From a virus, in IMG/VR virus record IMGVR_UViG_3300025073_000036, positions 1-64,000 of that record: 64,000 bases of DNA. One strand, given 5' to 3'. Below, one piece after another: positions 1-54,889 of the stretch; the stretch's first letter is position 1, and each line of letters starts with the position of its first letter. The notes under the pieces are model-generated. The model saw nothing but the letters and a program-made list of their open reading frames with translations, searched no databases and was not told the origin of the DNA. The position numbers were made by a program, and so were the translations under genes.

Positions 1-79
1 TTGCCCAAGGTGCCGCGGCGCAAGGATCACTGGGCGCTGGTCTAACCGTCATAGTCCTGACGGTTTCCTGTGGGTCGGA

Positions 80-98
80 TTCAAACTGTACCAGTACC
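80..98 (+). mobile_element. Possible right terminal inverted repeat of an IS1-family element that interrupts the giant gene
   Basis: The reverse complement GGTACTGGTACAGTTTGAA fits the IS1-family GGnnnTG end pattern. Codon usage in the giant-ORF frame is atypical up to position 98 and typical from 99. ATG126 has no Shine-Dalgarno (SD) sequence. Confidence 0.35.
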
Positions 99-125
99 CT
101 CAAGGAAGAGCAGCGGTTCGGCGGT

Positions 126-3100
126 ATGTCCATCTACCGCACGAAGAACGGCCGCACGTTCGCCGCACCGACGGGCGCCAACGCGCACGAGATCGTCCAG
201 GCCTGGATGCGCGAGATGCTGCACGAGGCCATGCCGACCATGCCCGAAGAGATTGCCGAGAAACACGGCATCACCGACGAGGATGAGCGGGCCAACCCCG
301 TCACACCCGGCATGGAACGAGTGCTGGGCCGCGTGCTGCGGCAGGAGGCGACCCAGGCCGTGGTCGGCAACGTCCAGCGCCTCAACAACGAGGCGCTGGG
401 GGCCATGGCGCCGGCCAAGGGGTCGAGCGCGTGGAAGTCGCTGGCCGAGCGGGCCACGCAGCAGCAGGCCGAGATGACGGCCAGCCGGCAGGGGCGCGAC
501 ACGCGGGCGCAGCAGTACCTCAACGGCCTGGACAGCAAGGCCGAGAAGAGCTACGCGCTGGCCGCCGGCATCGCCATCATGCACGGCGGGCAGGTGACTT
601 TGCCCCGGGGAAAGGCCGGCCAGGCGGCCGCCGATCTGCCCAAGGACGTGAAGATGCGCCTGCGGCGCGAGATCGCGGCGGCCATGGGTCACACCGGCCA
701 GGGAGCGGCCCCGGTCGAGATCGCCGAGACGCGCACGGACGCACCGCAGCCGGCGAGCTTGCACGAGGCGGCCCGCACCGGCCTCGCGCCCCCCGTCGAG
801 GCCACGGTGGGCGCTCGTCAGGCCCAGGTGGCCGCGCAGGCCCCGGCGGCGCCGAAGCCGGACAAGGCAAAGGCAAACGATCACGAGAGCCGGGCACGCG
901 CCTACGAGCTCACCGGCGACAAAGAAGGCGCGGCACTGCACCGAGAGGCCGCAGCCGCTCATGAGAGCGGCGCGCCCGGAGCGCAGGACGCCAGCGACAA
1001 GGCGGAGGCCTGGCGCGGCGGTTGGAATGCCGGCGCCTCCGACGATCCGGCGCAACCTGGCGCGGGCGGCAAGCACGATGAGACGTGGCAGGCCGGGCAT
1101 GCCCACGGCGCGGCATTCAGCGCGGGCGGTAGCGCCAGCGGCAAGAATCCGCACCCGGCCGGATCGACCCTGGCGGGCGCGTGGAGCCGAGGAAGTCGGG
1201 AGGGCGCTGGCGACCGAGCAGCGGAACAGAGGGCCGCCGCTGCGCTGCCGTCCAGGCCGAAACTCGTACCCTCACCTGCGCCTGAGCCGAAGGCCAGTCA
1301 GGCGCAGGTGACGCCCCCGGAAGCCCCCGCAACGCCGCAAGCCGCAGAGGCGGCCGGCCAGGCGGCGGCGGGTGGTCAGGGGATCGCCCCAATCGCCCTC
1401 AAGGGCGGGCAGGTGGGGATCGGTCAGGCCACGATCAAGCAGGACCGCCACCCGACCACCGGGGAGGCCACGCACGTCGTCAACCTCGGTTACCGGCTGG
1501 GGTCCGATCACTTCTACGACGCGGCCGCCAAGGCCCGCGAGCTCGGCGGAAGCTACGTGCGTCGGGTCGGGTTCTCGTTCTCCGATCCGGGGAAAGCCCA
1601 CGACTTCGCGCAGCACTACGCCCGCCCGCCCGCCGGGGCAAATCAGACTGCACAGGCCACGCAGACGGCCGATGCGGCGGCCCGCAAGGCCGCCGGGGTG
1701 GCTCCGCGCGCCAGCAACCTTCACCCCAGCTCGGCCGTGAGTGAGATCCAGCTCAAGGCGCACGGGGAGGCCACCGAGGCCATCAACGCCTACGCTGCCG
1801 CCGTGGACGCCGGGGCCAGCCCGAAAGAGCTGGCGGCGAAGCGAGCGGCGGCCATGCGCCGCATCGACGCGCACGCGGCGACGGACAAGCGGCAGGGCTA
1901 CAGCGGCAAGGCCACCATCCAGCAGCACGGGGCCGCGTTGCTCCGCCAGGTCGAGGGCGTCGATGGCCACGCGCACGACAAAGGCGCGGCCGCAAAGCCG
2001 GGTGCCGATCCAGAGGCGTTCGCGCGCCACATGGAGAGCATCAAAGGCGACCAGCACATGGGGGCCGATTTCAAGAACGCGGTCGACAAGGCCCTGTCCG
2101 GGCACGCTTGGCAGGTTCCGGGCGGCCAGCGGGCGGCCACGGGCGAGGTCAGCCTCGAGCAGGCCGTGCGGGCGGCGCACGACCTGCATGGCGACCCGGG
2201 CCGGCTCTCCGGCCCTGTGCATCGCGCGGCCTACGCCCTCGGCCTGCCCGTCGCACCGCGCCAAGGGTCCGAAGCGGACGTGCCGCACGCTGCCCTGCAG
2301 GCCGCCTTGCAGAAGGTCAACGACCCGAAGGCCTACACGGCGAGCTACGAAAAGGAAAAGTGGCAGGGCGAGATGAAGCGCCGGCAGAGCGTCGCCAAGG
2401 CGCTCGGTGTGCCTGTCGAGAAGGTCGGGCCGCAGATCGGCACCGACGTGACGAGCCTGAGCACCGGACTCGACGCGATCCGGGCGCGCCTGCACGACCA
2501 CAAAACCCGCGACTCGGCCAAGTCTGAGCTCGCGTGGCGGCAGGGACTCGCCGACGCCGCCGGCCACAAGGTCGATCTCTCGACGCTCGGCGAGGGCGGC
2601 AAGAAAGACGCCGCCTGGTCGGGCGAGCAGGTCGTCAACGGCAAGGGCGAGCGGTACGTGCGCCGGGGCGACAGGTGGCACAAGGTCGAGGCCAACGGCG
2701 CCGTGGCCGACTGGGGCCAGCATCGCAACGAGATCGAGGGGGGCCAGACGTGGAAGGGGCAGTCGGTATCGACCGCCGACTTGCACAACGCGACCGCGAA
2801 CGAGGTGGCGCGTTCCCCCAACGCCAAGGCCGATCTCATGGCCGCGCTGCGGGGCCATGCCGGCCACGCTTTCGGGCGGCCCATCGAGTCGAAGGGCGGC
2901 GGGGCGCTGCCGTTCGATCATGTCGTCCAGGCGATGAACATGGTGGAAGGCCGGCGCGGCCGGAAGGAAGAACCGACGCCCTGGCACGAGTACATGAGCG
3001 ACGATCAGCTCAAGGCCGTGCACGCCATGCCCGGCGTCGCCGGTGTGATCTCGGCAGGGGTGCAGAACGAGATGGAGGCGCGCGAGCACGTCGGCCTGGG

Positions 3101-4283
3101 CGCCGCCGTGCAGAGCACGCCCGCCGAGGTCGAGCTCAAGAACGCCGCCGGCACCAAGGTCAAGACCGCGAAGGCCGAGACCGCGCATGGCCTGGCCGTC
3201 CACAAAACGCTCGACGACAAGGGCTGGATCGTCACGCACCACGGCAGCGGTCAGGCCGTGACCGACCCGACAAAGACGAAGGGCGAGGCCATGCAGGCCT
3301 TGGCTCTCTTCCGCAAGCACTACGGGGCCGATCTGCCGGCGAACGCGGCAAAGGTGGACCACGCGAAGGGGGTGGCCGCCCAGGAGATCGTCAACCGCCA
3401 CATCCATTCCGGCATCGCCGCCCGCTCGGTGGCCCTGACCGGAGGCGAGCGCACCGCCAGCGCCTCGCACGTCCAGGCCAACGACGCGCTGCGGAGGATG
3501 GCGACCGAAGAGGTCCCGCGCGCCAAGGCGCCCGGGAAGGAAGAGCCGAAGGCCCTGACGCCGGAACAGGCCCGAAAGCGGCTCGGCACGTTCGCCAGCA
3601 AGGAAGAGAGCCGACCGAACCTCAACGGCTACTACGTGGGCGCTGGCGCCGATCACGGGGTCGCCACGGACGGACACCGCCTCGCCACGATCCCCGTGGC
3701 CGGGCACGACGTTCAGAACGAGGGGGCCAAGGAAGGGGCGATCTACCGGCACCAGCACCCCAAGGGCCACGAGGCCGCGCGCGAGAAATACGCCGCGCAA
3801 CAGCTCGCGTCCGGCACATCGCCCGAGGCGGTCGAGAAGTGGAAGGCCGGCTGGGATCGCGACACCGGCGCTGGCTCCAAGGTCGACGCGGCCTTCCCCG
3901 ACTACACCCAGGTCGTGCGCAAGCGCGGGACGCAGGCCGAGGACCACATCGACCCGAAGCGGCTGCGGGACGTGCTCACCCACGCGAGCACCCTTTCGTC
4001 CACACGAACGCACGGGGTCATCCTGTCGCGCGAAGGCGGCAAGGTGTACGTCGGGGTCGGCGGTCCGGGGAACGACGTTGCCCCGGAGCACATCCGGGTG
4101 CAGGTCGGTCACACCGACCACCCGGACGGCAAGCTCGCGGTGCACTCCGGCTATCTCGGCGAGGCCGCCAAGGGGGCCAAGGACACCTTGGCCGTCGGCT
4201 GGGACAGTGACGAGCCGCTGGCGCCCATGAGCCTGCACCGCACGGACGGTGAGCACCACACCATCATGCCCCTGCGCATGTGA
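126..4283 (+). CDS. Giant polyvalent head-region protein with C-terminal beta-clamp-like module; frame is open to the window start, so the true N-terminus may lie upstream
   Basis: 1385-aa Ala/His/Lys-rich ORF. The C-terminus has DnaN motifs FASKEESRPNLNG, VATDGHRLA, FPDYTQV and terminal IMPLRM. It lies immediately upstream of the protease/capsid genes. Confidence 0.8.
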   Translation: MSIYRTKNGRTFAAPTGANAHEIVQAWMREMLHEAMPTMPEEIAEKHGITDEDERANPVTPGMERVLGRVLRQEATQAVVGNVQRLNNEALGAMAPAKGSSAWKSLAERATQQQAEMTASRQGRDTRAQQYLNGLDSKAEKSYALAAGIAIMHGGQVTLPRGKAGQAAADLPKDVKMRLRREIAAAMGHTGQGAAPVEIAETRTDAPQPASLHEAARTGLAPPVEATVGARQAQVAAQAPAAPKPDKAKANDHESRARAYELTGDKEGAALHREAAAAHESGAPGAQDASDKAEAWRGGWNAGASDDPAQPGAGGKHDETWQAGHAHGAAFSAGGSASGKNPHPAGSTLAGAWSRGSREGAGDRAAEQRAAAALPSRPKLVPSPAPEPKASQAQVTPPEAPATPQAAEAAGQAAAGGQGIAPIALKGGQVGIGQATIKQDRHPTTGEATHVVNLGYRLGSDHFYDAAAKARELGGSYVRRVGFSFSDPGKAHDFAQHYARPPAGANQTAQATQTADAAARKAAGVAPRASNLHPSSAVSEIQLKAHGEATEAINAYAAAVDAGASPKELAAKRAAAMRRIDAHAATDKRQGYSGKATIQQHGAALLRQVEGVDGHAHDKGAAAKPGADPEAFARHMESIKGDQHMGADFKNAVDKALSGHAWQVPGGQRAATGEVSLEQAVRAAHDLHGDPGRLSGPVHRAAYALGLPVAPRQGSEADVPHAALQAALQKVNDPKAYTASYEKEKWQGEMKRRQSVAKALGVPVEKVGPQIGTDVTSLSTGLDAIRARLHDHKTRDSAKSELAWRQGLADAAGHKVDLSTLGEGGKKDAAWSGEQVVNGKGERYVRRGDRWHKVEANGAVADWGQHRNEIEGGQTWKGQSVSTADLHNATANEVARSPNAKADLMAALRGHAGHAFGRPIESKGGGALPFDHVVQAMNMVEGRRGRKEEPTPWHEYMSDDQLKAVHAMPGVAGVISAGVQNEMEAREHVGLGAAVQSTPAEVELKNAAGTKVKTAKAETAHGLAVHKTLDDKGWIVTHHGSGQAVTDPTKTKGEAMQALALFRKHYGADLPANAAKVDHAKGVAAQEIVNRHIHSGIAARSVALTGGERTASASHVQANDALRRMATEEVPRAKAPGKEEPKALTPEQARKRLGTFASKEESRPNLNGYYVGAGADHGVATDGHRLATIPVAGHDVQNEGAKEGAIYRHQHPKGHEAAREKYAAQQLASGTSPEAVEKWKAGWDRDTGAGSKVDAAFPDYTQVVRKRGTQAEDHIDPKRLRDVLTHASTLSSTRTHGVILSREGGKVYVGVGGPGNDVAPEHIRVQVGHTDHPDGKLAVHSGYLGEAAKGAKDTLAVGWDSDEPLAPMSLHRTDGEHHTIMPLRM

Positions 4284-4307: not shown

Positions 4308-4574
4308 GTGAGCGACACGCCGGCCATCCGCTGCCCGCACTGCGGCGCGCACTTCTCGCACGCCGTCGAGGGCAAGGTGAAGCTGCGGGTGCGGCTCATC
4401 GCCTTCGGTCCGGACGGGCGCGGTGAGGTCCACTGCTCGAGCTGCGGGCGGGACGTGCCGTTGCCGGTGACGCTTGGCGAGAGCCACCGGCCGAAGACAC
4501 CACCGCCCCGAGCGCGGTCCCAGGTGCGGTTCGTCCTGCCGAAGGGCTTGACAGCGCGCCCGGGCACCTCATAG
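4308..4574 (+). CDS. Small zinc-ribbon protein, Mu Com-like regulator
   Basis: IRCPHC-x29-CSSC in 88 aa, directly upstream of the prohead protease. Confidence 0.6.
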   Translation: MSDTPAIRCPHCGAHFSHAVEGKVKLRVRLIAFGPDGRGEVHCSSCGRDVPLPVTLGESHRPKTPPPRARSQVRFVLPKGLTARPGTS

Positions 4575-4636: not shown

Positions 4637-4669
4637 AGGCGGCCGGGTTTTGACCCGTGCCGCCTTTTT
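4637..4669 (+). terminator. Intrinsic terminator/attenuator in the protease leader
   Basis: AGGCGGC-CGGG-ttttga-CCCG-t-GCCGCCT followed by a T run. Confidence 0.65.
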
Positions 4670-4685
4670 GCGTTTTGGGGGGTCG

Positions 4686-5603
4686 GTGTTTCGAGGGGGA
4701 GCAATCAACAGCGCGAGGACAGCGGCCGCCGAGGGCGGCTGCGCGGTCCTGCACGCCTGGATGCCCTTCGAGGCCTTCGAGAAGGCCGGGGCGTCGGCCG
4801 CCAAACGCCTGCGCATCCGGGGCGTGATCAGCACCGAGCACCGCGACCGCCACGGCGAGCTGGTCAAGCAGGACGGCCTCGACTTCGGGCCGATCCTGGC
4901 CGGGTACGGCTGGCTCAACGACGGCCACGACTCGCGCAGCGGCGCCGAGCTCGGCATCCCCGAGCGCATCTACCGGGTGACCGTGCCCGGCCCGGACGGC
5001 AAGCCGATCAAGGCGACGGCGATGGAGGGCTACCTGCTCGACACGCCGCGCGGGCGGGCCATTTGGGAGAACAGCAAAGCCCTGCGCGGGACCGGCCGCT
5101 CGCTCGGCTTTTCGGTCGAGGGCGGGGTGCTCGAGCGGGCCTGTGGCTGCAGCGCGCGCAACCCGGGGGCGATGTGCCTCAATCCCACGGCGCACAAAGA
5201 CGTGGAGCGCGCGCTCGTCAAGCAGATCGCCATCACCCGCGTGCCCGTCAACCCGCACACCACGCTCGAGCCGCTGGCGAAGAGCCTGGACGCCACCATG
5301 CGCGCGGTGTGGGCCAAGGCCATGAGCGTCGGCTACCCTACGCAGGTGCCCGGCATGGGCGCGCCTGGCGCGCTCGGCCCCACGGTGCCGCAGGGCTGGA
5401 CTCGGCCGACGGTGCAGGTATTCGACGGCGTCCCGTTCGATTGGGAGGCCTTCAACCAAACCGGTTCGTCCCGGGCAGCCGTTCAGTCGGCGCGAGGGGG
5501 ACGCACTCTGACCAAGGGCGAGGCGGAGGCGTTCATCCGCGCCCGGCTCCCCAACGCCTCGACTGCGCAGGTGCGGGCGCTGCTCGACCGCGCGGCGATC
5601 TGA
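4686..5603 (+). CDS. Prohead (capsid maturation) protease, SPO1/Twort-like; start uncertain (TTG4650, GTG4686 or other)
   Basis: IRGVISTEHRDRHGE, GWLNDGH, LGFSVEG, IAITRVPVNPHT motifs; located before scaffold and capsid. Confidence 0.88.
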   Translation: MFRGGAINSARTAAAEGGCAVLHAWMPFEAFEKAGASAAKRLRIRGVISTEHRDRHGELVKQDGLDFGPILAGYGWLNDGHDSRSGAELGIPERIYRVTVPGPDGKPIKATAMEGYLLDTPRGRAIWENSKALRGTGRSLGFSVEGGVLERACGCSARNPGAMCLNPTAHKDVERALVKQIAITRVPVNPHTTLEPLAKSLDATMRAVWAKAMSVGYPTQVPGMGAPGALGPTVPQGWTRPTVQVFDGVPFDWEAFNQTGSSRAAVQSARGGRTLTKGEAEAFIRARLPNASTAQVRALLDRAAI

Positions 5604-5621: not shown

Positions 5622-6428
5622 ATGCGCAACTGCCACAAGATGCTGCTCGCCAAGGCCAAAGGGGGCGACAAGCACGCCTTCGCCTGCCTCAAGTCGATGG
5701 CCGACGACGACGACGACGACGGCGCCCGCGAGGCCCTGAGCGAGCTCGACCCGGAAAACGACGGCAACGGGGCCGATCCGGACGACGACCTCGACAAGGC
5801 CGAGCAGGGCAACCTCTTCGACCTCGACGCCCTCGACGGTGAGCTGCGTCAGCTCGAGCCGTTCGCCAAGGGCGAAGGCGCGCCCGACATGCCCTCCGGG
5901 GCCGACCTGCTCGGCGGCCAGCCGGAGATTCAGGCGGCGGCCGCGATGGACGCGGGCGATTTCGTCAAGGCCATGGTCGACGCCAACGTGCAGGCCATCG
6001 ACCGCCTGGGCGACGGCGTGCTGTGGAACGCTTCGGCCGTCGAGGCCTTGGCCAAGGGCCAGATCGCCCAGGGCGAGCTCATCCACAAGTTCGTGGGCCT
6101 GCTCGGCGAGATGCAGGCGGGCCTCGACACGCTGAACAAGGCCCTGAGCTCGCGTGGAGCCGGGCCGGTGGGCGCGCAGACGCCGCAGCAGCTCGCGGCC
6201 CTCCAGGCGCAGCGCCGGGCGGCCGTCCAGGGCGCCGGTGGCGGCGCGGGCGGCGCGCCGCAGCGCCAGGCGGGCAAGCCGTCCGAGCTCAACGACCTGC
6301 AGAAGTCGTTGCGGACCATGCGCGCGACGGAGACCAACGAAGACGTGCTCGGCCGGATCAACGACGCCCTCGAGGACCTGACCATCGGGAACCTCGAGCG
6401 CGCCCGGTCGCTGGTGCGAAGCAAGTAA
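5622..6428 (+). CDS. Putative capsid scaffolding protein
   Basis: Acidic and helical, many LxK-A/S/G motifs, between protease and capsid. Confidence 0.65.
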   Translation: MRNCHKMLLAKAKGGDKHAFACLKSMADDDDDDGAREALSELDPENDGNGADPDDDLDKAEQGNLFDLDALDGELRQLEPFAKGEGAPDMPSGADLLGGQPEIQAAAAMDAGDFVKAMVDANVQAIDRLGDGVLWNASAVEALAKGQIAQGELIHKFVGLLGEMQAGLDTLNKALSSRGAGPVGAQTPQQLAALQAQRRAAVQGAGGGAGGAPQRQAGKPSELNDLQKSLRTMRATETNEDVLGRINDALEDLTIGNLERARSLVRSK

Positions 6429-6504: not shown

Positions 6505-8016
6505 ATGAACGACGTGGCGCTCCCCAGCGACATTTTCGGCGGCGCGGCCGAGGTCTCGGCCGGCGACGTGGCCAGCGCGCTCGGCTTCGGCGGGGTCAAC
6601 GACCTGCTCAAGGCCATGACGGTCGGCGACCAGTTCCCGGCCACCATCGGCGAGCTCTCGCCGGGCGCCATGATGGCGACGGTGCCGCAGGATCTCGACG
6701 ACGTGCTGCACAACGCCAGCTTCGGCGACCGGCAGATCGTGCTTCAGAAGATGCTGAAGACCGACAAGGTCTGGTCGACGGTCCACCAGTACGTCCGCAA
6801 GCACTCGCCCGGCTCGGCCGGCCGGCGCTTCATGTTCCACCGCGAGGGCGGGCTGCCGGTCGAATCCGACTCGACCTACAGCCTCGAGTCGCTGGCGATG
6901 AAGTACCTCGGTGCCGTGCGCCGCCTGCCCATCCAGGCCCGCCTGGTGAAGTCGGTGGCCGGCGACGCGGTCAAGAACCAGAACAAGGACGGCGCGCTCG
7001 AGATCCTGGCCTCGCTCGAGTGGCACCTGTTCTACGGCAACAGCGCCACCAACCCGCTCGCCTTCGACGGGATCAAGACGATCATGAAGCGCGAGGGCAT
7101 CCTGCTGGACGCCCGCGCTGCCACGCCGAGCGAGAGCCTGCTCGACGAGGCCATGAGCAAGGTGTGCGAGCGCCCCAACTGGGGCTACCCCACGCACCTG
7201 ATGTCCAGCTCGGCCGTCAACCGCACCCTGCGGCAGACCTACGCCGGCCGCATCCGGGCCATGATGGGCGACAAGTTCCACCCGAACTACCAGCTCAAGG
7301 GCATGGTGTACGACCACTGCGCCGACGGCGACGAGGTCAAGATCATCAAGCACCCGCTGGTGATCGAGGAATCCGGCCTGCCCGACGAGCGCGGCGCCGG
7401 CCCGGACCCGTCCAGCCGTCCGGTCGAACCGCTCATCGTGGTGCAGCCGGCCAGCGGCGCGGCCGGGGCGAACCGCTCCGATTTCGTCGCCAACGACGCC
7501 GGGGCCTACTACTACCGGATCGTGGCCCTGAACGGCGGTGGCATGTCCAAGCCGGTCACGACCAACGCGGTCAACGCGGTGGCCGGCCAGGTCATCAGCA
7601 TCACGATCCGCGACGGCGCGGTCCCGGGCAGCAAGCAGGCCGCCACGGCCTTCATGATCTACCGCACCGAGAAGGGCGGCGCGGCCACGACCGCGAAGTA
7701 CATCACCGAGGTGGCGGTGGCGGCCAACAACGCCGACACCGTTTTCATCGACGGCAACGGAGATCTGCCGGGCTGCTCCGACATCTTCATCCTGTCGAAC
7801 GACAGCGAAGCCATCGAGATCAAGCAACTCCTGCCGTTCTTCAACTTCCCCCTCGGGAACATGGACACGTCCTACCGCTGGGCGCTGCTCCTGTTCCTGG
7901 CCCTCAAGATCGCGCTGCCCCGCAAGCACTGCGTCATCAAGAACGTGAAGCCCGACGCGCAGCTCATCCAGCTCGTCGGTTCGGGCGATCAGAGCGGCCC
8001 GCAGCAGCACGTCTGA
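6505..8016 (+). CDS. Major capsid protein, Herelleviridae (SPO1/Twort)-like
   Basis: DLLKAM, QDLDDVL, STVHQY, REGGLP..SDS, MKYLG, LEWHLFYGNS...LAFDGI, YYYRIVALN motifs. Confidence 0.92.
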   Translation: MNDVALPSDIFGGAAEVSAGDVASALGFGGVNDLLKAMTVGDQFPATIGELSPGAMMATVPQDLDDVLHNASFGDRQIVLQKMLKTDKVWSTVHQYVRKHSPGSAGRRFMFHREGGLPVESDSTYSLESLAMKYLGAVRRLPIQARLVKSVAGDAVKNQNKDGALEILASLEWHLFYGNSATNPLAFDGIKTIMKREGILLDARAATPSESLLDEAMSKVCERPNWGYPTHLMSSSAVNRTLRQTYAGRIRAMMGDKFHPNYQLKGMVYDHCADGDEVKIIKHPLVIEESGLPDERGAGPDPSSRPVEPLIVVQPASGAAGANRSDFVANDAGAYYYRIVALNGGGMSKPVTTNAVNAVAGQVISITIRDGAVPGSKQAATAFMIYRTEKGGAATTAKYITEVAVAANNADTVFIDGNGDLPGCSDIFILSNDSEAIEIKQLLPFFNFPLGNMDTSYRWALLLFLALKIALPRKHCVIKNVKPDAQLIQLVGSGDQSGPQQHV

Positions 8017-42662: not shown

Positions 42663-43351
42663 AGGCCGTGCTCGTGGCAGGTCGAGTCGTGGCAGGTGTC
42701 CGACACGTCGCCGCAGATGTCGCACCACTTCATTGTCCCGTGGCATTGCCCATCGCCCGGGCACGACTCGGCCAGGCGGGCGGCCTCGCGCTCTTCATCG
42801 GCACGGCGCACAACCTGCCGGTGCGAACGCAGGGCCGACTCAATGTTGAGCGCGAGCCAGGACTTGAGCGTGCCCGCAGGCCAGCCGTGCGCGACGCCGA
42901 AGGTCAGATCGGCCCGGGTCTTTCGGTCGGCGGCGGCGGCCAGACGCAGGACGATCCGGCCCTCGACGCTTGGCGTGCCGTCGGCCTCGGGCGGTGCAAG
43001 CTGAAACGGCTCGGCCAACGACCCCAGGATCTCGGCCGTCTCCTGCTCGCCGATCTCATCGGCGTGGGGCGCCTCGACTCCGCACGGACGAACGTCGGAA
43101 TGGGCGAGCTCCATCGTCTGCCACAACCGGCGGGCCACCTCGTCGGCCTTCACCCAGGCGGCATGCAACAGCGGCAAGGCCGGCACCATGATCGACCGGT
43201 CGCTGCGTTCGACGATCCGGCGGGCCTCGTCTTCGGTGTAGAGCCCGGCTGCGGCCACCTCGTCGGTGTAGCCGGACGACTCCGGCCGCCAGTAGCGGCC
43301 CCGGCCCGATTGGTGTTCGGGCAGAACTTCCACGAGAAAGCGCGACATCAC
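42659..43351 (-). CDS. Hypothetical protein
   Basis: YWRPESSGYT..AAGLYTEDEA N-terminal motif; Cys-rich C-terminus. Confidence 0.6.
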   Translation of the reverse strand: MMSRFLVEVLPEHQSGRGRYWRPESSGYTDEVAAAGLYTEDEARRIVERSDRSIMVPALPLLHAAWVKADEVARRLWQTMELAHSDVRPCGVEAPHADEIGEQETAEILGSLAEPFQLAPPEADGTPSVEGRIVLRLAAAADRKTRADLTFGVAHGWPAGTLKSWLALNIESALRSHRQVVRRADEEREAARLAESCPGDGQCHGTMKWCDICGDVSDTCHDSTCHEHGL

Positions 43352-46269
43352 ATGACCTCGAGCGTGGAGCCGTTGACGCCCGGCCGGACTTCGACCCGGT
43401 GCGGCAGGCAGTCGGCCACAGCGTCGATGTGCGTGACCACGAGCACGAGCGGGTAGAGCCGCTGCAGGCCGGTGACGGTGTCCTTGAGCGCGTCGATGCC
43501 GCTCACGTCCAGGGCGCCGAATCCACCTTCATCGATCAGCAGCCATTCGACGGGCACACCTTCACGGTCGGCCAGCAGCCGGGCCAAGCCGAGGCGGAGG
43601 GCGATGTCGATGCGGAATTGCTCGCCGCCCGAGAAGTCCTCGTATTCACGCTCCCCCACGTCGTCGGTGACCACGAAGCGCATGACCTCGCGCTGCCCGC
43701 CGTCGTCGGTCGTGGCCTGGGTCTCGATCCGCAGGCGCATGCCGCGCGTGGAGATCGCCCCGAGCACCCGGTTGGCCTCCAGCTCGAGCACCGGGATCGC
43801 TTTCTCGATCACGAGCGTGGGGGCCAGCGCGCAGGCCTCGGCCGTGCGGTCGAGCTGCCGCGCGGTCTCGGCGTACATGGCGGCCGTCTCCAGCTCGCCC
43901 CGGGCCTGCTCGGCACGGCGGGCCACGTCCTCGAGCACGGCCTCGGCCCTGGCGTGCAGCCGCTCGGCCTCGGTGACCGACTTCTCGGCCGCCTCGCGCG
44001 CCTGGCGGGCCTCGCTGGCGGCCGTCTCGGCCACCATGGCGTTCATGGCCTGCTCGTCCGTGCTGCTGGCGCGCTCGACCTCGGCGGCGCGCTCGGCGCG
44101 CTCGGTGTCCAGCCGGGCGATCTGCCGCTCGATGTCACTGCGCTGGGAGACGGCCAGCTCGGCCGCAGCGCGCTTCCCCGCCGTGGTCTCGCAGCTCGTC
44201 ACGGCCGCGCGGGCGGCGGTCACGGCCGCTTCGGCGGCGGCCACGTTGGGCACGCCGAGCTCGTCGATCTTGCCGCGCACGCTGGCACCCTCGCGGGCGA
44301 GGCGCGCCACCTCGTCGGCCTCGGTGCGGGCACGCTCGGCGGCGCCGCGTTTGGCGTCCACCGTGGCCGAGTCGCGCTCGGCCTGGGCCAGCGCGGTACG
44401 GGCGTTGTCGAGCGCGGTGCGCGCCACGCTCTCGGCGTGCGCGGCGGTGCGCCGGGCGGCGGCGGCGGCGGCCTGCCGCTCGCGCAGCGCGTTGCGAGCG
44501 TTCCCCAGCGCCCGACCGGCGTCGGCGTCCAGTCGGTCGGCCGCGTCGTAGGCCTCGGTCGCCTGTCGGACGGCGGCCTGGGCCGCCTCGTGGGCCGCCT
44601 CGGCCTCGGCCAGCTTCTCGCGCGCTGCGGGCAACCCGTCGCGCGCGGCCACCGCGTCGGCGATGAGGGGGCAGGTGCCGGCCAGGTCACACGACACCTG
44701 CCCGATCATCGGGTCCGTTGACATCCACTGAGGGTGCCGGGCGCACGGCGCCTGGGTCAGTCGAGCGGCCGCTTGGGTCAGCCGCTCGGCGTTGCTCGTC
44801 GCCGTGGCGAGCGCGATGTGCGTTGCGTTGCGGGCGTTGCCGGCCTGGATCTGCGCCTGCTGCGCTTCGGTCAGGGCGGCCCGGGTGGTCGTGGCCGTCG
44901 TCTCGTCCACCTGCTCGGCGCGCGCCGCGTCGTCCGCCACCTCGGCCGTGCGCATCGCCGCGCTGGCGGTGTCGAGCGCGCCCTTGGCCTCGTCCACCTT
45001 GACCCGCAGGCCTTCGATCTGCCCGGCCGCCGCTTCGGCCTGGGTCAGCCCGGCCGCTTCGGCGTCGGCGGCCTTCTGGCGGCCGCTGGCGGCCGTGTAG
45101 AGCTCGACGAGGCGCTTGCGCTCGACCACGAGCGCGTCGAGCTTCCCCTGCGCCTCGCGCACCTGCACAAGGGCCGCCTCGGCCTCGGCCAGCCGCTCAC
45201 GCACGCCGGGCAGATCGGTCTCGGCCTTCGCTGCCGCGTCCAGCTCCGCCGCCGGCCCGGCCAGCTCGTTGAAGCGGGCACGCGCGGCGGTGATCTCGCC
45301 GTCCAGGGCGGAGATCCGCCGCCGTGCCTCGTCCACGTTGCGGGCGGCCGCCTGCGCCGCTTCGAGGGCCTGCTGCGCCGCCGTGTGCGCCGCGTGTGCG
45401 CTCGCCTCGGTGGTCTTGGCGCACGCGAGGCGCACACGGGAGGCCTCGACCACGCCGGAGGCCTCCTGGGCCAGCAGAGCGAAGACCTCCGCCATGCGCG
45501 GCGCCTCGACCGCTCCGCCCGTGTTCTTCAACGTGAAGTAGATCACGTTCCACGCGCCTTCATCGTCGTACCGGGCGAGCTCGTGGCCGTCGGGCGCGCA
45601 GGCCAGGACCGGGCGGTCGACGGGCAGCATGGCCCGCAGGCCGGCCGCGATGGTCGCCGCCCGGGCGTTGGCCTCGTCCCGCTTGGCCGTGGCGTCCCGG
45701 GCGCCGGCCCGGGCGCGGTCGAGCCAGACGCGCCAGCGGCCGAGATCGAGCGAGCGACGCAGGATGTCGCGCCGCTCTTCCGGCTTCGCCCGGGTGAGCC
45801 GGTTGGCGTCGTTCTGCATCATCACCGACGCCGCGAGCAGGGTGTCGTACTCGATGCCCAGGATGCGGCGGATCTCCGCCTGCGTCTCGCGCGCGCCCTT
45901 GCCGCTCATCGGCTCCCAGTGCTCGTCGTGCACGCCGTCGACCGGGCTCGTCTCCAGCACCCATCGGTACAGGTCGAGCTCGCTCTTGGTGCCCGATCCG
46001 CGCACGCTGATCTTGCGCACGATCTTGTAGGTCTCGCCGGTGCTGCTGAACTCCAGCTCGCCCACGCAGTCGGTGGCGCCCTTGCGCACCACGCCGGTGA
46101 TGCGGCTCGACCGGCTCTCGCCGAACGGCACCCACACGATTCCCTCCGCGAGCGAGCTTTTGCCCGCCCCGTTGGGGCCAGTGATCACCGCGCCCGGCAT
46201 GGTCGTGAAGTCGAGATCCACGTCCGCCCAGGCGCGGTAGTTCCGCAACCGAAACCGCTTCAAACGCAT
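43348..46269 (-). CDS. sbcC: SbcC/Rad50-like SMC ATPase
   Basis: Walker A GPNGAGKS, long coiled coil, FSGGE signature, Walker B LLIDEG, VTH. Confidence 0.93.
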   Translation of the reverse strand: MRLKRFRLRNYRAWADVDLDFTTMPGAVITGPNGAGKSSLAEGIVWVPFGESRSSRITGVVRKGATDCVGELEFSSTGETYKIVRKISVRGSGTKSELDLYRWVLETSPVDGVHDEHWEPMSGKGARETQAEIRRILGIEYDTLLAASVMMQNDANRLTRAKPEERRDILRRSLDLGRWRVWLDRARAGARDATAKRDEANARAATIAAGLRAMLPVDRPVLACAPDGHELARYDDEGAWNVIYFTLKNTGGAVEAPRMAEVFALLAQEASGVVEASRVRLACAKTTEASAHAAHTAAQQALEAAQAAARNVDEARRRISALDGEITAARARFNELAGPAAELDAAAKAETDLPGVRERLAEAEAALVQVREAQGKLDALVVERKRLVELYTAASGRQKAADAEAAGLTQAEAAAGQIEGLRVKVDEAKGALDTASAAMRTAEVADDAARAEQVDETTATTTRAALTEAQQAQIQAGNARNATHIALATATSNAERLTQAAARLTQAPCARHPQWMSTDPMIGQVSCDLAGTCPLIADAVAARDGLPAAREKLAEAEAAHEAAQAAVRQATEAYDAADRLDADAGRALGNARNALRERQAAAAAARRTAAHAESVARTALDNARTALAQAERDSATVDAKRGAAERARTEADEVARLAREGASVRGKIDELGVPNVAAAEAAVTAARAAVTSCETTAGKRAAAELAVSQRSDIERQIARLDTERAERAAEVERASSTDEQAMNAMVAETAASEARQAREAAEKSVTEAERLHARAEAVLEDVARRAEQARGELETAAMYAETARQLDRTAEACALAPTLVIEKAIPVLELEANRVLGAISTRGMRLRIETQATTDDGGQREVMRFVVTDDVGEREYEDFSGGEQFRIDIALRLGLARLLADREGVPVEWLLIDEGGFGALDVSGIDALKDTVTGLQRLYPLVLVVTHIDAVADCLPHRVEVRPGVNGSTLEVM

Positions 46270-46346
46270 GTTGGTCCCCCGACCATGAAGTTGTGCGCCG
46301 CCGGGCGGCGCCCGCCTGTAGGGCACCGGACAAGCGGCAGGTGCGA

Positions 46347-46375
46347 GCATTTAGCGCGACGCGCTAAGAAGTCAA
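46347..46375 (-). promoter_or_regulatory. Internal promoter for sbcC with perfect palindromic operator
   Basis: TTGACT, then TTAGCGCG-T-CGCGCTAA (46351-46367) in the same register as the other leftward promoters; weak -10. Confidence 0.55.
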
Positions 46376-46390
46376 CAGGAAAGCGCGCGG

Positions 46391-46837
46391 TCAGTCGGAC
46401 CGCGACGACTCGGCGGTGAGCTCGTGAATGGACACGGTGCGCTCCGAGTGGCCGATGCACTCGTTGTCGTAGGTCTGGACGGACGCGGCCACCCGAATCA
46501 GGCCGCGCGCGAAGTCGATGCCGGACCGTGTCGGACGGTAATTGCCGCGCCCTTCGCGCTCGATCAGCCCCCAGTGCACGAGGAAGGCCAGATCGGTCGA
46601 GGCCTTGGTGGCCTTGGCGCTGCCCTGGACAAAGTCGCGCACCTGGCACCACTGGCCCGGCCGCAGCTCGTGAAGGTCCACGAGCCGCACGAGGTTGATC
46701 GCGATCTCACGGTGCAACTTGCGGGTGTAGATCTGCGTGGTGCGCTGGCAGCAGGGGCAGGTCACGGGCTTGCCACCCTCGAGGGCGACGAAGTGTTCGT
46801 GCGAGGCCTCGGCCAGGGTGCGCGGGGAGCTGGACAT
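46391..46837 (-). CDS. Winged-helix-like protein with CPCC
   Basis: CPCCQ..IYTRKL, LVHWGLIE..GNYRPT..GIDF; GGAGG SD. Confidence 0.65.
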   Translation of the reverse strand: MSSSPRTLAEASHEHFVALEGGKPVTCPCCQRTTQIYTRKLHREIAINLVRLVDLHELRPGQWCQVRDFVQGSAKATKASTDLAFLVHWGLIEREGRGNYRPTRSGIDFARGLIRVAASVQTYDNECIGHSERTVSIHELTAESSRSD

Positions 46838-46840
46838 GGG

Positions 46841-47020
46841 TTACCTCCGGCCTCGCAGGATCTCGCGCACGATGGTCCTGGCGTAGGCCTGATTTTCGCG
46901 GCGCAGGCGCCGGACGGTGGCGGTCAGACACATCAGGTCGAGCCGGTGCTCGAAACACCGCCAGGAGAGCCACACGAGGCCCGCAGCGAGCAGGCCGTGC
47001 ATCACCTCGGCAAGGTTCAC
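46841..47020 (-). CDS. Small membrane protein
   Basis: GLLAAGLVWLSW; coupled GTG start. Confidence 0.45.
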   Translation of the reverse strand: MNLAEVMHGLLAAGLVWLSWRCFEHRLDLMCLTATVRRLRRENQAYARTIVREILRGRR

Positions 47021-47778
47021 AGATCGTCCGTGTCCAGGCCGGCCGCGTCGGCCAGGTGCTCGACCACGAGGGCCAGATCGGTCGAGTCCACCTCGACCGT
47101 GGGATCGTTGCGGCGCGAGGCACGCAACAGGCGCAGCAGGGCCTCGTGCGTGTCGTCGTCGAGCCGGACGGTGCGTGGGGGCTCGACGGTCACGACCGGA
47201 AGCGGCGCGGTGGTCGGGCGTCGGTCGGGCCGGGCGTCGGCGTAGACGCGGTCGAAGGCCTCGCGGTTGACCGGATCGCCGCCGACCAGCAGCGCAGGGG
47301 GGTAGTGGGCCTCGATGCAGCCGGCGGGGTCGAGGCCGACGAACGCACCGCAGGTGCACCGCAACTTCATGCCCGGCGGGCCGTGGACAACCCGTATCGG
47401 TGCGCCGGAGGCCGGGCAACGTGCTGAATCGCTCCGGGCGGCCGGCGGGCGAGGGGGGCTTCCCGCCGGCCGCCCGTGGGCGAATCCGATCTGTACGAGC
47501 AAGGCCGCCGCTTCGGTGAAGCGGCCGACGTAGGCCGTGTGCGCCCAGCTCCCGAGCGCGCCGCTGTACGTCCACCCCAGGGCCGTCAGGCCGCGCGCGT
47601 GATCCACGCTGCCCGTCCAGTAGTGCAGGCGGTTGCAGGCCGGGCACGGCCGGGCGTCGCAGGGCGGATCGCCGACGTTGTGGCACATGCCGTTGCACTT
47701 CCCCACGTCGCCCAGGAAGAGCACGTCGCAGCCGGAGCACTGCCACAGGTTGCGCACGGTCAGGTCAGGCAGGGCCAT
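47017..47778 (-). CDS. Cys-rich hypothetical protein
   Basis: Multiple CxxC; GGAGG SD. Confidence 0.6.
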   Translation of the reverse strand: MALPDLTVRNLWQCSGCDVLFLGDVGKCNGMCHNVGDPPCDARPCPACNRLHYWTGSVDHARGLTALGWTYSGALGSWAHTAYVGRFTEAAALLVQIGFAHGRPAGSPPRPPAARSDSARCPASGAPIRVVHGPPGMKLRCTCGAFVGLDPAGCIEAHYPPALLVGGDPVNREAFDRVYADARPDRRPTTAPLPVVTVEPPRTVRLDDDTHEALLRLLRASRRNDPTVEVDSTDLALVVEHLADAAGLDTDDL

Positions 47779-48544
47779 CGGGCACCTCCGCCGGGGCCAC
47801 GCGCACGCCGAAGGCGACGATGTCGGCCTCGTCGAGCATCACAGCGATCCCGGTGAACTCACACTGCCACGGGACCGCCCGGGCCGCGCAGGCCCGCACG
47901 AAGGCCTCGGCGTCGGCCAGCTCGCCCCCGTTCTCGCCCTCGTTCTCGTCGCTGCCGAAATCCTCGCTGAAACGCTCGGCCCACCAGTCGAGCAGGTCAC
48001 GAGCTGCGCGCCGGATGTAGTCGTCGTCGATGTCGCGCCGTTCGTAGACGTGGAGCGCGACCGGGCCGGAGACCACGGGGCCGTGCACGTCCTCGAGCGC
48101 GGCCTGTGGGTCATCCCACATGCGTTCGGCATCGTGCGGGCCATACAGCGGCTCCCAGCCCTGCGCGAGGGCCTGGAAGTCGCGCCAGGCCACCGTGCGG
48201 GTGGGCGCCTTGAAGCCGCTGCCACGACAGATCGGGCAGACCTCGTCCTTGTCGTCCGGGCACGGCGTCCAGCAGCAACCGTTCTTGCGCTCCGCCGTCT
48301 CCTGGCGGCCCCAGTCCTTCGGCTCGCCGTGGACCCAGGCGAACTCGTTTGGCTTCACACCCAGCCGGCCACCTGGCGTCAAAACCGACACCGCGCCGTA
48401 GTGATTCATGTAGGCCAGGTGCTCGGCCGGCTCGGCCACCGCAGTCGGCTTGTCCGGGTTCACCAAGCTGGCCAGAAAGGGGAAGTCGGCGGTCACGCGC
48501 TTGACAAGCCTCACGGTGGGGTTGTTGCGCTTCATCCCTCGCAA
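47765..48544 (-). CDS. Hypothetical protein
   Basis: LGVKPNEF motif, CPICRGSG. Confidence 0.6.
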   Translation of the reverse strand: MRGMKRNNPTVRLVKRVTADFPFLASLVNPDKPTAVAEPAEHLAYMNHYGAVSVLTPGGRLGVKPNEFAWVHGEPKDWGRQETAERKNGCCWTPCPDDKDEVCPICRGSGFKAPTRTVAWRDFQALAQGWEPLYGPHDAERMWDDPQAALEDVHGPVVSGPVALHVYERRDIDDDYIRRAARDLLDWWAERFSEDFGSDENEGENGGELADAEAFVRACAARAVPWQCEFTGIAVMLDEADIVAFGVRVAPAEVPDGPA

Positions 48545-48717
48545 CCCATCTGGTAGTGACCGCCGCAGGTGGGCGAGCAGAAGGTCAGTTTACGTCTGCG
48601 GACGTACTTCTTTCGCTTTACCTCGTCGAAGGCCAGGTCGGTGATCGTCGTCGTGTGTGGCGTGGCGATGAGCGCGCCGCACTGCGGACACTTGGCGGGC
48701 TGGTTGAGGGCGCTCAC
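48532..48717 (-). CDS. YdaE-like small zinc-binding protein
   Basis: CPQCG...FCSPTCGGHYQMGCEG resembles the Rac-prophage YdaE family. Confidence 0.6.
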   Translation of the reverse strand: MSALNQPAKCPQCGALIATPHTTTITDLAFDEVKRKKYVRRRKLTFCSPTCGGHYQMGCEG

Positions 48718-50123
48718 GCCGCACCGACCTTCCCGGCCGACCCCTGCTCGGCCGCCCAGTTGCGGATGTTGCCACGGATCGCTTCCTCGTCCGGGGCGAG
48801 GTCGGGGCGGGCGCTGAACACGGCGGAGAGCACACCCTCGAAACCGAGCTCGGTCTGCACGTCCTCGACGCGCGCCCGGTCGGCCCGGGCCACCTTGCAG
48901 CCGTTGGTGATCGTCACCCCGCAGGCCTTGAGCTCGCGCACGAGCCCGGCCACGACCTCGTTCTCGGCCTCGGTGATGCCGTCCCGGTCGGGCGAGACCA
49001 CGCGGTAGACCCAGGCCTGGTCGCCCCGCTCCGCCTCGGCCTTGAGCTCGGTCAGGTGGTCGTGCACCTCGTCCGGGTGCAGGGTGACAAAGCGGCGGGC
49101 GCCCGGGTTGGCGTGGAACTGGCAGGCCCACCGTTCGCGCACCGGCCCGCCATCGTCGGCCACGAACTCGCGCGCGAAGGTGCTCACGCCCTTCGGCTGG
49201 CCCTCTTCGCCGAAGTCCATGCGGTCGGGGCTGCCGATGTAGCCGTGGGTGAAGAGCATGCCCCGCCCGTCGTCGGTCTCCGCGTCCTCGACCACGGGCG
49301 AGGCCACGGCCTGCCGCTTGTGCAGGTGGCCCCACACGGCCAAGTCGAAGGCGGGGAAGGTGTCGGTCGAGATCGGAGAGTCGGCGAGCGGCACGGTCTG
49401 GTAATCGTTGTATGCCGCGCTGGCGAGCGTGCCGTGCCCGAAGAGGATGCAGGGCGCCCCGGGCGCGACCTCGCGACAGAGCGGCACGAGCTGCGCGTGC
49501 GCGCCCAGGACGGCGTTGAAGCCGCCGGCCAGCACCGCCGACGTAACAACCACGCTGCCGCTCACCTCCGCCGCCGCCGCCCGGGCCGGGTAGGGCACGG
49601 GGAAGATCCAGGCCTCGACCTCGAGCCCGGCCATCCCGGCCGGGTCGGTGAAGGCCACGGCGGCCAGCCGCCCGTTGACGCCGTCACGCACGAGGGCCTG
49701 GGGCGCGAAGGTGTCGAGCACGACGACCTCGGCCGGCCGGAGGTGTTTCAGCGGCTCGAGCGCGTGCGTCCCGCTCCCGTTCGGGCGGTCGTGATTGCCG
49801 AGCAGGACGAGCACGAGAACGCCCGCGTCGGCCCACGACGCGAACGACTCCTGCACGACGGCCTCGGCGGCCGGCAGCGGGCGCGGATCGGGGTAGACAT
49901 CGCCGGCCACGAGCACGAGGTCGCAGCGGTTGGTGCGGGCGGTCTGGCCGATCCACGCGAGCGTCTGGCGGGCCTGGGCCAGGACGAGCGGCCGGCGGGT
50001 GGCCCGGTCGACCGGCTGGAGGCCGGCGAGGTTCTGTGTGGCGCTGACGTGCAGGTCGGCGCAGGCGAGGATGCGCAGCTCGCGCGCGGCCTCGTCAAAG
50101 TCGGTGTCAATGGTCTCGTTCAT
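48714..50123 (-). CDS. sbcD: SbcD/Mre11-like metallophosphoesterase nuclease
   Basis: ADLH, AGDVY, GNHD, GHG, GHLH, GSPDRMDFGEE. Confidence 0.93.
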   Translation of the reverse strand: MNETIDTDFDEAARELRILACADLHVSATQNLAGLQPVDRATRRPLVLAQARQTLAWIGQTARTNRCDLVLVAGDVYPDPRPLPAAEAVVQESFASWADAGVLVLVLLGNHDRPNGSGTHALEPLKHLRPAEVVVLDTFAPQALVRDGVNGRLAAVAFTDPAGMAGLEVEAWIFPVPYPARAAAAEVSGSVVVTSAVLAGGFNAVLGAHAQLVPLCREVAPGAPCILFGHGTLASAAYNDYQTVPLADSPISTDTFPAFDLAVWGHLHKRQAVASPVVEDAETDDGRGMLFTHGYIGSPDRMDFGEEGQPKGVSTFAREFVADDGGPVRERWACQFHANPGARRFVTLHPDEVHDHLTELKAEAERGDQAWVYRVVSPDRDGITEAENEVVAGLVRELKACGVTITNGCKVARADRARVEDVQTELGFEGVLSAVFSARPDLAPDEEAIRGNIRNWAAEQGSAGKVGAA

Positions 50124-50244
50124 GGTGTTCCCCTTGTCGAAGTTGGTGCCGGTCTCTCCCCGGCAGTCACGCATGGTTGAGCGGCCGCGTTCCCTGGATC
50201 GCCCTCGGCCTCGCGGCGTCACCGGGCGATGCGTGTCCCGTCGC

Positions 50245-54370: not shown

Positions 54371-54864
54371 CGACGCCCACCGAGCCGCAGCTCGACCTTT
54401 TCGGCGGCCCCGCGCCGCGCTCGGCGCACACGCCCGCGCCGGCCGTGGCAGGGCGGGCCACGAGCGTCCTGAGCGGTCAGCAGATCCTCGACGCGATGCC
54501 GGAGCTGCGCCGCCAGGTGTTCGCCTTCATCCGCGTCCAGGGCGGCAGGGGGGCCACCGACGACGAGATGCAGGCGGCGATGGGTCTCAACCCCTCGACG
54601 CAGCGCCCGCGCCGCATTGAGCTCGAGCGGCAGGGTTTCATCCGCCAGGACCCGGAGGGCCGCACGCGCGAGACCCGCAGCGGCCGTCAGGCCGTGGTGT
54701 GGGTGATGGTGCCGGAGGCCGAGCGGCAGGGCCTCGGGGAGCGCCGCCAGGTCGAGACCGAGGTGCGCGGCGCACTGCATCACTTCATCGCTGCCCTCGA
54801 CCTCGAGCAGTGTCGAGCGGCCATCGGTGTCCTGCGTGCGCGTTTCCCGAGCGTTTCGACCTGA
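54367..54864 (+). CDS. Winged-helix DNA-binding protein
   Basis: GATDDEM..GLNPSTQRPRRIELERQG..TRSGRQAVVW. Confidence 0.7.
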   Translation: MTTPTEPQLDLFGGPAPRSAHTPAPAVAGRATSVLSGQQILDAMPELRRQVFAFIRVQGGRGATDDEMQAAMGLNPSTQRPRRIELERQGFIRQDPEGRTRETRSGRQAVVWVMVPEAERQGLGERRQVETEVRGALHHFIAALDLEQCRAAIGVLRARFPSVST

Positions 54865-54889
54865 CAGACCGACAGACAAGTGGAAAAAC

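Follow-up and report, generated by a model that had tools for sequence, protein, structure and literature searches.

A ringless module derived from the bacterial sliding clamp ends giant head-region proteins of uncultured phages

Introduction

The beta sliding clamp is a central hub of bacterial replication and repair, and its binding pocket is an antibiotic target. The clamp protein, DnaN (TIGR00663; PF00712, PF02767 and PF02768; structures 2POL from E. coli and 7RZM from Stenotrophomonas), is a free protein of 366 amino acids (aa) with three domains, and mutating the interface residues I272 and L273 of its domain III renders it monomeric. Here we describe a DnaN-derived module that forms the last ~240 residues of a giant protein (P0002) encoded in the head-gene region of an uncultured phage. 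The sequence studied, hereafter the window, is the first 64 kb (64,000 nucleotides) of a 94,886-bp IMG/VR virus record (IMGVR_UViG_3300025073_000036; CheckV completeness 96%, ~70% G+C). The module is homologous to DnaN and has a like fold over residues 133-366 of beta, and it shares with DnaN the residues of the motif pocket and the C-terminal MP(M/L)R strand that closes this pocket. Whereas DnaN stands alone, the module is the tail of a giant head protein, without domain I and with the C-terminal half of domain II replaced or deleted. Its family also has motifs of its own that DnaN lacks, namely HPDG, KGAKG, R.DGE.H and S346P.

The giant protein that carries the module recalls the polyvalent proteins described by Iyer et al. 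2017 (PMC5512222), which are likewise very large and multi-modular, are encoded among virion genes beside a MuF-like gene and are predicted to be DNA-accompanying cargo, the argument being that virions contain them and deliver them together with the DNA. The Pfam families InPase (PF18823) and ART-PolyVal (PF18760) derive from the same work. The terms clamp, DnaN and processivity factor have 0 occurrences in the main text of that paper, and we found no description of a clamp pocket in a polyvalent protein in the searchable literature; in the one paper of that literature where 'polyvalent protein' and 'sliding clamp' co-occur, they are treated separately.

Clamp derivatives missing one domain are also represented among phages by the two-domain 'PolIII beta-like processivity factors' (Bacillus phage vB_BcM_Sam46, 217 aa; Escherichia phage Seurat, 246 aa; Xanthomonas phage Suba, 222 aa). 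Models of these factors in BFVD match the module structurally, with a target-normalised template-modelling (TM) score of up to 0.78. The factors are small, free-standing and made of two complete domains, whereas the module is joined to a giant protein, its domain II is gutted, it falls in a separate clade and its genome has no detectable polymerase. The herpesvirus proteins UL42 and UL44 provide a functional analogy only. They have the clamp fold, are ringless and hold a polymerase by a peptide-in-groove contact, but they are eukaryotic-virus proteins of the PCNA lineage that bind DNA directly and serve their own polymerase, and no homology is claimed. Phages are also known to disturb the clamp system early in infection, as with the clamp inhibitors of the staphylococcal phages Twort and G1 and with N4 gp8, which acts against the delta subunit. 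Those proteins are small, unrelated and bind the host clamp or loader, whereas the phage studied here encodes part of the clamp itself.

Results

A DnaN homologue without domain I

The giant open reading frame (ORF) is fully open and of the coding type, with a G+C content at third codon positions (GC3) of 0.88-0.89, and its product combines long Ala/Gly/Gln-rich linkers with small conserved islands. A preliminary description of the locus had recognised a truncated clamp at 3580-4283 by four motifs in DnaN order. All four lie in frame in the ORF and in that order, namely FASKEESRPNLNG, VATDGHRLA, FPDYTQV and a terminal IMPLRM (Table 1). The module itself is therefore real, and only its start had been placed slightly too far downstream, the true start being at ~3555 (aa 1144-1385; 242 residues).

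Searched with phmmer against the Protein Data Bank (PDB), the module matches Stenotrophomonas DnaN (7rzm_A) at an E-value of 1.7e-6, with residues 154-374 aligned and the C-terminus reached. Among profiles, it matches PHROG 947, 'DNA polymerase processivity factor' (E 2e-14), and TIGR00663 (E 1.3e-9; 37.5 bits vs a cut-off of 137.65, over profile positions 235-366 only). These two profiles detect the module, whereas the Pfam clamp-domain models, for which a hidden Markov model scan had been proposed, fall below their cut-offs. The module would be missed by Pfam alone, because DNA_pol3_beta_2 gives just E 0.06.

An AlphaFold2 (AF2) model of 3483-4280 has a mean predicted local distance difference test score (pLDDT) of 92.6, and VIA-align places its residues 25-266 on E. 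coli beta 133-366 with a Z of 20.9 and a root-mean-square deviation of 3.6 Å over 205 aligned residues. Because the input alignment of this model included ordinary clamps, a second model was built from an alignment of family members only and was extended 184 residues upstream. It matches beta from residue 132 on (Z 20.6), with the DnaN alignment beginning at model residue 184. Structural alignment of this extended model found no domain I in the 184 residues upstream of the module, and since it still aligns only from beta 132, no domain I is hidden there. The region before the module, a small beta-rich domain followed by a long helix, is kept among family members, has no match to clamp domain I and is modelled with a pLDDT of ~70-80. 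Elsewhere in the genome, neither a PF00712 match nor a second clamp-like stretch was found, and a hidden domain I, whether upstream or elsewhere in the genome, was rejected as a candidate. Assignment of secondary structure with DSSP places helices at model residues 93-109 and 114-128, where they replace the C-terminal beta-alpha-beta half of domain II. Both the missing domain I and the replaced middle of domain II had been read from the letters beforehand, and both readings hold. The module does not have the three-domain I-II-III architecture of DnaN. It is nonetheless a true DnaN homologue, with a similarity far beyond chance.

A single family of giant-protein tails

An exhaustive phmmer search over 1.84 billion representatives returned 89 proteins, which comprise ordinary clamps of ~370 aa, giant proteins with the module at or near the C-terminus and a few short fragments. 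The giant relatives are P0003 (2574 aa, 57% identity), P0006 (1787 aa), P0010 (1475 aa), P0014, P0012, P0066, P0068, P0035 and P0020, and P0091 and P0092 were gained from a further, longer homologue search. Homology to P0003, P0006 and P0010 extends over residues 428-1385 of P0002. Word-based searches for homologues of the module region and of residues 428-1143 returned the self-match alone, the ESM Atlas gave no usable match to residues 800-1143, tblastn of the module against 50,697 phage records gave no match and a scan of genome contigs gave no confirmed relative. A metagenome scan gave five loci, mostly duplicates of viral ones. No cultured relative was found, the best capsid match in the phage collection being at ~26% identity.

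A tree of 61 sequences groups the 18 modules of giant proteins in a single clade (support 1.0; stem of 0.90 substitutions per site), apart from both the canonical clamps and the short clamp fragments. The phages bearing family modules span 50-72% G+C. Judged from these alignments, the module is a conserved monophyletic family in giant proteins of uncultured phages, with a single origin. The survey of related phages that had been suggested thus located the module in giant proteins of the head-gene block in several relatives, and the fusion is not unique to this phage.

A conserved pocket and a lost ring interface

Subsites I and II of the clamp pocket were taken from a 2024 review of the clamp (PMC11139829) and mapped onto 16 family rows through an alignment with E. 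coli DnaN (dnaN of NC_000913). R152, T172, G174, H175, R176, P242, Y323, M362, P363 and R365 are invariant or nearly so in these rows, and L155, L177, V247, N320 and M364 show conservative variation only. P0002 and nearly all of its relatives keep R152, L155, T172, G174, H175, R176, L177, P242, V247, Y323, M362, P363 and R365. The residues R152, L155 and T172-L177 lie in the N-terminal half of domain II, within FASKEESRPNLNG and VATDGHRLA, and P242, V247, Y323, M362, P363 and R365 lie in the domain III segment. Mean conservation is 0.80 in the pocket columns, compared with 0.42 in the other 175 columns (permutation p < 1e-5). By the conservation of its residues, the pocket for clamp-binding motifs is retained in the module. 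Around the pocket, the family has further invariant positions of its own (S346P, R351, D353, G354, E355, H359, the KGAKG turn and the HPDG loop), which hint at a dedicated or modified ligand.

The residues of the ring interface behave differently. Conservation at I272, L273, E298 and E304 is only 0.19-0.44, and the family has polar residues, Pro or Gly there. At position 272 the family uses T, P, D, G, A, S, E or K and at position 273 L, V, G, H, T, K or D (conservation 0.19), whereas canonical clamps in the same alignment keep hydrophobic residues at both. The hydrophobic I272/L273 dimer interface of the DnaN ring is absent from the module family, and these residues support the earlier proposal of a retained pocket with lost ring closure. 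E. coli positions 200-230 are missing in >30% of family rows, and DGHR and FPxY lie 25-85 aa apart in the family vs 60-77 aa in canonical clamps. This range of spacing indicates that the second half of domain II is dispensable and that the two helices of P0002 are a variable filler; the insert varies in length across the family and is absent in many relatives.

A gene split by a transposon

In this genome P0002 corresponds to the 3′ part of a gene for ~2075 aa into which an IS1-family transposon has inserted. The element is bounded by perfect inverted repeats of 21 bp, the right one of which ends at 93970 of the record, position 98 of the window. It is bordered by an 8-bp target duplication, CTCAAGGA, at 99-106 and at G000 89816-89823. 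Within it lie a DDE transposase-like gene, an N6 DNA methylase gene and one further ORF. The frame of the giant ORF stays open through 1-106, and on the other side the last 19 residues of the 703-aa product of g87773 are read from the transposon end. Removing the element in silico joins g87773 (through ...KQGLKE) in frame to EQRFGG-MSIYRTKNG..., and the restored product of ~2075 aa has an architecture matching that of intact relatives. The fusion to a giant virion-region protein had been described correctly in that the module ends a giant protein of the head block; what the description had missed is that the ORF here is only the 3′ part of a split gene.

The two ends of the record overlap, with 93873-93971 corresponding to 1-99 at 100% identity and 94102-94886 to 373-1157 at 87%. 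The far-end copy (L002 9873-10886 vs 1-1157) has no duplication, is 143 nt shorter beside the element and joins in frame too. The record looks as if two strain variants of a circularly permuted genome of ~93.9 kb had been assembled into one wrap-round sequence.

Head-gene neighbourhood and polyvalent relatives

The gene order around the module is portal, MuF-like, g87773, giant ORF, protease, scaffold and capsid, with the transposon lying between g87773 and the giant ORF, and the same gene order is found in the related loci L003-L005, L007, L012 and L013. Further upstream in circular order, the 2032-aa protein and the large terminase precede the portal. The portal is well supported (PHROG 12, E 1.5e-26), whereas the MuF-like neighbour is a weak match to Pfam Phage_Mu_F (E 1e-3, below cut-off). 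The order of head genes downstream of the module gene is conserved in L003-L008. In L006, L008 and L016 the module gene adjoins the portal or the terminase, and placement in the head module is kept in every relative having context. The small Cys-rich, Zn-finger-like ORF that follows the module gene has no family match; by tblastn it is 91% identical in L003, L004 and L012 and 58% identical in L005 and L013, with its position unchanged.

The relatives also show what an undivided gene looks like. In L003, L004 and L012, whose capsid is 94% identical, homologues of g87773 and of the giant ORF form one continuous frame of ~2340 codons. In L005 and L013 (capsid 59%), a 1008-aa protein carries the N-domain of g87773 and the clamp module at opposite ends, and its gene separates the MuF-like gene from the Zn-finger and protease genes. 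In L007 and L015, four giant genes lie between portal and protease, and one of them ends in the module. A neighbouring giant in L007 has InPase, a methyltransferase and a ferritin-like domain, one in L006 has ART-PolyVal, and in P0091 InPase and the clamp module occur within one chain. A BFVD match bears the name 'large polyvalent protein-associated domain-containing protein'.

These signature domains of polyvalent proteins co-occur with the module in relatives only, and P0002 itself has no Pfam polyvalent domain. Its chain has at least the small beta domain, the long helix and the clamp module, with the shared N-domain (see below) in front before the split. Of these, a fold is identified for the clamp module only, and Pfam and NCBIfam profiles detected no enzymatic domain in the chain. 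The gene lies among virion or late genes beside a MuF-like gene, as do those of polyvalent proteins, which often neighbour MuF or are fused to it. Because of its position in the head module and the polyvalent domains of its relatives, P0002 is best filed with the polyvalent proteins, and it is probably one of them, delivered in the virion.

Table 1. Features of the module gene, its surroundings and other genes mentioned in the text. Coordinates refer to the window unless they carry a prefix.
Feature	Coordinates	Strand	Remarks
Right end of IS1-family cargo transposon	1-106	+	21-bp right inverted repeat ends at 98
IS1-family element	G000 89824-93970 (with flank L002 5816-9970)		left 21-bp repeat at G000 89824-89844
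Giant ORF (P0002)	126-4283	+	1385 aa; 3′ portion of the split gene of a probable polyvalent protein; clamp-derived module at C-terminus
Pre-module region	3123-3503	+	small beta-rich domain (~3123-3323), then 48-residue helix (3360-3503)
Clamp domain II, N-terminal half	3555-3746	+	corresponds to E. coli beta ~133-180
Motif FASKEESRPNLNG	3591-3629	+	in frame
Motif VATDGHRLA	3660-3686	+	in frame
Two-helix insert	3747-3875	+	stands in for C-terminal half of domain II
FPDY linker and complete clamp domain III	3876-4280	+	ends in IMPLRM
Motif FPDYTQV	3894-3914	+	in frame
Family motif HPDG	4119-4130	+	in domain III segment
Family motif KGAK	4170-4184	+	in domain III segment
Family motif DGExH	4245-4259	+	in domain III segment
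Motif IMPLRM and stop	4263-4283	+	in frame
Cys-rich (Zn-finger-like) ORF	4308-4574	+	88 aa, two CxxC pairs; directly 3′ of module gene, 5′ of protease
Maturation protease	4650-5603	+	PHROG 1028, E 1e-19
Putative scaffold	5622-6428	+	by position only, no family match
Major capsid protein	6505-8016	+	PHROG 752, E 5e-63
SbcC-like and SbcD-like genes	43348-51429	-	1000 aa and 502 aa
DnaC-like helicase loader	52806-53735	+	
Dam-like methylase	54827-55627	+	
DUF5131 protein	58914-59972	+	
Two adjacent methyltransferase genes	L001 4430-5857, L001 5857-6798 (G000 68430-70801)		C5-type, DPPY-motif
2032-aa protein	L001 12936-19031 (G000 76936-83034)		just upstream of portal; shared N-domain at aa 187-378
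Shared N-domain	L002 3773-4372; L001 13494-14105; L005 4328-4903; L007 2373-2906, 4928-5365, 8780-9175, 11223-11606, 13182-13610		

Beside the clamp module, the head-gene blocks have further features of note. The batteries of giant genes in relatives (L007 2385-14801; L006 2993-6724) encode InPase, methyltransferase, ferritin-like, DUF5710 and ART-PolyVal domains. A domain of ~150 aa with the pattern HKYxRKVP..RYFY..GGxGLGH..GHFHV..HDExG..MLHxEH is common to g87773, the 2032-aa protein and the four giant ORFs of L007. In L007 it occurs in five copies, two of them in a 1413-aa ORF, each with different downstream modules. This shared N-domain has no match in Pfam, PHROG or NCBIfam, and a profile search of PDB sequences gave nothing credible (best E 0.19); it may be a common tag of head-module cargo proteins. 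The C-terminal 300 aa of the 2032-aa protein match PHROG 19458, which is named primase (E 1.4e-40), and the protein is similar to primase-annotated proteins of Faecalibacterium and Clostridium phages. This protein is possibly a second replication module that is delivered.

Replication genes and candidate ligands

Profile searches found no family A, B or C polymerase (PolA, PolB or Pol III alpha) in the 95-kb record or in five related fragments, which extends to the whole record what had been stated for the window. A DnaC-like helicase loader is present, as are SbcC-like and SbcD-like genes, and no tRNA genes were found. Within the limits of profile searches, the polymerase-free record is consistent with reliance of the phage on host Pol III. 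Five DNA methyltransferases are predicted in the record, comprising a Dam-like enzyme, a C5 enzyme, the DPPY-motif g69857 and two N6 enzymes.

All predicted proteins were scanned for clamp-binding motifs with the consensus from PMC11139829. Only two have such a motif within 20 residues of a terminus, and they are the products of adjacent methyltransferase genes. The C5-methyltransferase terminates in QIALGLFA, which resembles a hexamer of the Pol IV type. In the DPPY-motif methyltransferase-like protein, QASLFDLDE stands 12 residues ahead of the C-terminus (relative L011 has QPSLFDLDE), and the tail ends QASLFDLDEVAACPT. No homologue of the C5-methyltransferase was found in the five related records. 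The methyltransferase tails are a lead, and they may attach to the host clamp, to the phage module or to both. The scan gave no clamp-binding-like motif in the portal, the MuF-like protein, g87773 or the 2032-aa protein, and none that is conserved in the giants (4 vs 3.4 expected). Separately, the stretch QALALF (aa 1057-1062) of P0002 was considered as a delta-like motif that plugs the pocket in cis, and was rejected; relatives have HAAGML or HAAGMM at this place, and motif counts in the giants equal chance.

Discussion

Several functions can be proposed for the module, and each has to accommodate its DnaN homology and fold, the loss of the ring-forming parts, the conservation of the pocket residues, the single origin and the position in the head module. 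We tentatively favour, at a likelihood somewhat short of even, a function as a docking socket, in which the ringless DnaN-derived module would tether motif-bearing proteins near the polyvalent protein and the incoming phage DNA. The parts that make up the module, which are the first half of domain II, the filler and all of domain III, are those that build the pocket for Q-aliphatic-x-L-F motifs. The polyvalent protein, encoded between the portal and MuF-like genes and the head protease, would be packed in the capsid and enter with the DNA, and the socket would hold clamp-motif proteins beside the polyvalent protein and the entering DNA with no need for a clamp loader. Candidate host partners would be Pol III alpha, clamp-loader delta, Pol IV/V, MutS/L and Hda, and the two phage methyltransferases with clamp-binding-like tails might dock at the socket too. 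Delivery in the virion, peptide binding and tethering over titration are the parts of this account that we infer, and tethering is preferred to pure titration because few copies per virion are expected and the phage needs the host replisome. A more elaborate version, which we regard as improbable, would have the injected ringless socket gather the motif-tailed methyltransferases of the phage (QIALGLFA and QASLFDLDE) together with host Pol III or clamp-loader subunits on the entering genome, before host defences and with no loader.

Several observations weigh against the docking socket. First, the pocket of P0002 departs from that of DnaN at N320H, V360T and M364L, and S346P is family-wide; given these changes, the ligand may differ from canonical motifs. 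Second, retention of the pocket is partly a constraint of the fold, as these motifs are likewise the best-conserved stretches of ordinary DnaN. Third, the terminal clamp-binding-like tails are not above chance, with 2 observed vs 1.1 expected (P 0.31). Fourth, presence of the protein in the virion is deduced from gene position and from polyvalent relatives. Finally, P0002 as it stands is without the N-terminal domain common to head-module giants (HKY..RKVP..RYFY..GHFHV..HDE.G), and no promoter-like site was found before ATG126, which makes expression from this start uncertain. The copy in this genome may be poorly expressed or not packaged.

The alternative that survives best, although we consider it unlikely, is a decoy or trap, whose free pocket would sequester scarce host factors (delta likeliest, or Pol III alpha) and so shut down host replication or repair. 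A kept pocket together with a lost ring is evidence for a trap to the same degree as for docking. Delta has a ~50-fold higher affinity for the monomeric I272A/L273A clamp than for the dimer (PMC11139829), and with such a preference a high-affinity trap could work at low copy number. What speaks for tethering instead is the phage's own dependence. With no detectable polymerase of its own and a DnaC-like loader present, it would need the host replisome together with its clamp loading and would itself suffer from a lasting block; the copies per virion are also presumably few.

A role in particle assembly is improbable in our judgement. The pocket would then bind a motif in a phage head or cargo protein and thereby anchor or organise the giants in the capsid. 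The constant head-module position fits such a role, and the family-invariant R351, D353, G354, E355, H359, S346P and HPDG loop would suit a dedicated partner. The motif scan identified no such partner, since the portal, the MuF-like protein, g87773 and the 2032-aa protein have no clamp-binding-like motif and the giants have them at the level of chance. In addition, it is the shared N-domain (HKY..RYFY..GHFHV) that looks like a head-module tag.

We give equally little weight to the possibility that the split copy in this genome is a non-functional remnant of a disrupted gene. The insertion, with its 8-bp duplication, does cut the module part from the N-terminal third of the gene, and ATG126 is preceded by no promoter-like site and only a distant Shine-Dalgarno-like run. 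Against this, the 1385-codon frame is fully open with a GC3 of 0.89, and both parts of the gene begin and end where the intact relative has domain boundaries. Read-through transcription may occur, as the strand of the transposon genes is that of the giant ORF, and the insertion may simply be recent.

A working processivity factor, as a ring or C-clamp oligomer or by direct ringless binding of DNA like that of herpesvirus UL42, is more improbable still. Foldseek against viral models does match the module with the two-domain phage 'PolIII beta-like processivity factors' (211-246 aa; target-normalised TM 0.72-0.78), and the giant protein could supply DNA binding. Most members of the family, however, have just 25-37 residues for the second half of domain II, with which a pseudo-sixfold ring could not be built, conservation is lost at the interface residues, >1100 residues of other protein are attached to the module, and no phage polymerase was found for it to serve. 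Least probable of all is that the module uses its complete domain III to engage domain I in a monomer of host beta, either capping the monomer or tethering the giant protein to clamps, as I272/L273 are polar, Pro or Gly in the family where canonical clamps are hydrophobic, and E298/E304 are lost.

The family adds a new type of module to the polyvalent proteins and a ringless variant to the beta-clamp fold. This genome contributes the transposon split, relatives in which the gene is fused and intact, the variable filler of domain II and two methyltransferases with clamp-binding-like tails. The split gene beside intact relatives is a natural comparison of the protein with and without its N-terminal part, and the family members are natural minimal ringless pocket constructs of ~200 residues, available for biochemistry and inhibitor screening. 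If the docking socket is real, viruses would gain a new route to tap or disturb the host replisome, through a pocket on injected cargo, which raises the question of which host and phage proteins an incoming phage holds by their clamp-binding motifs.

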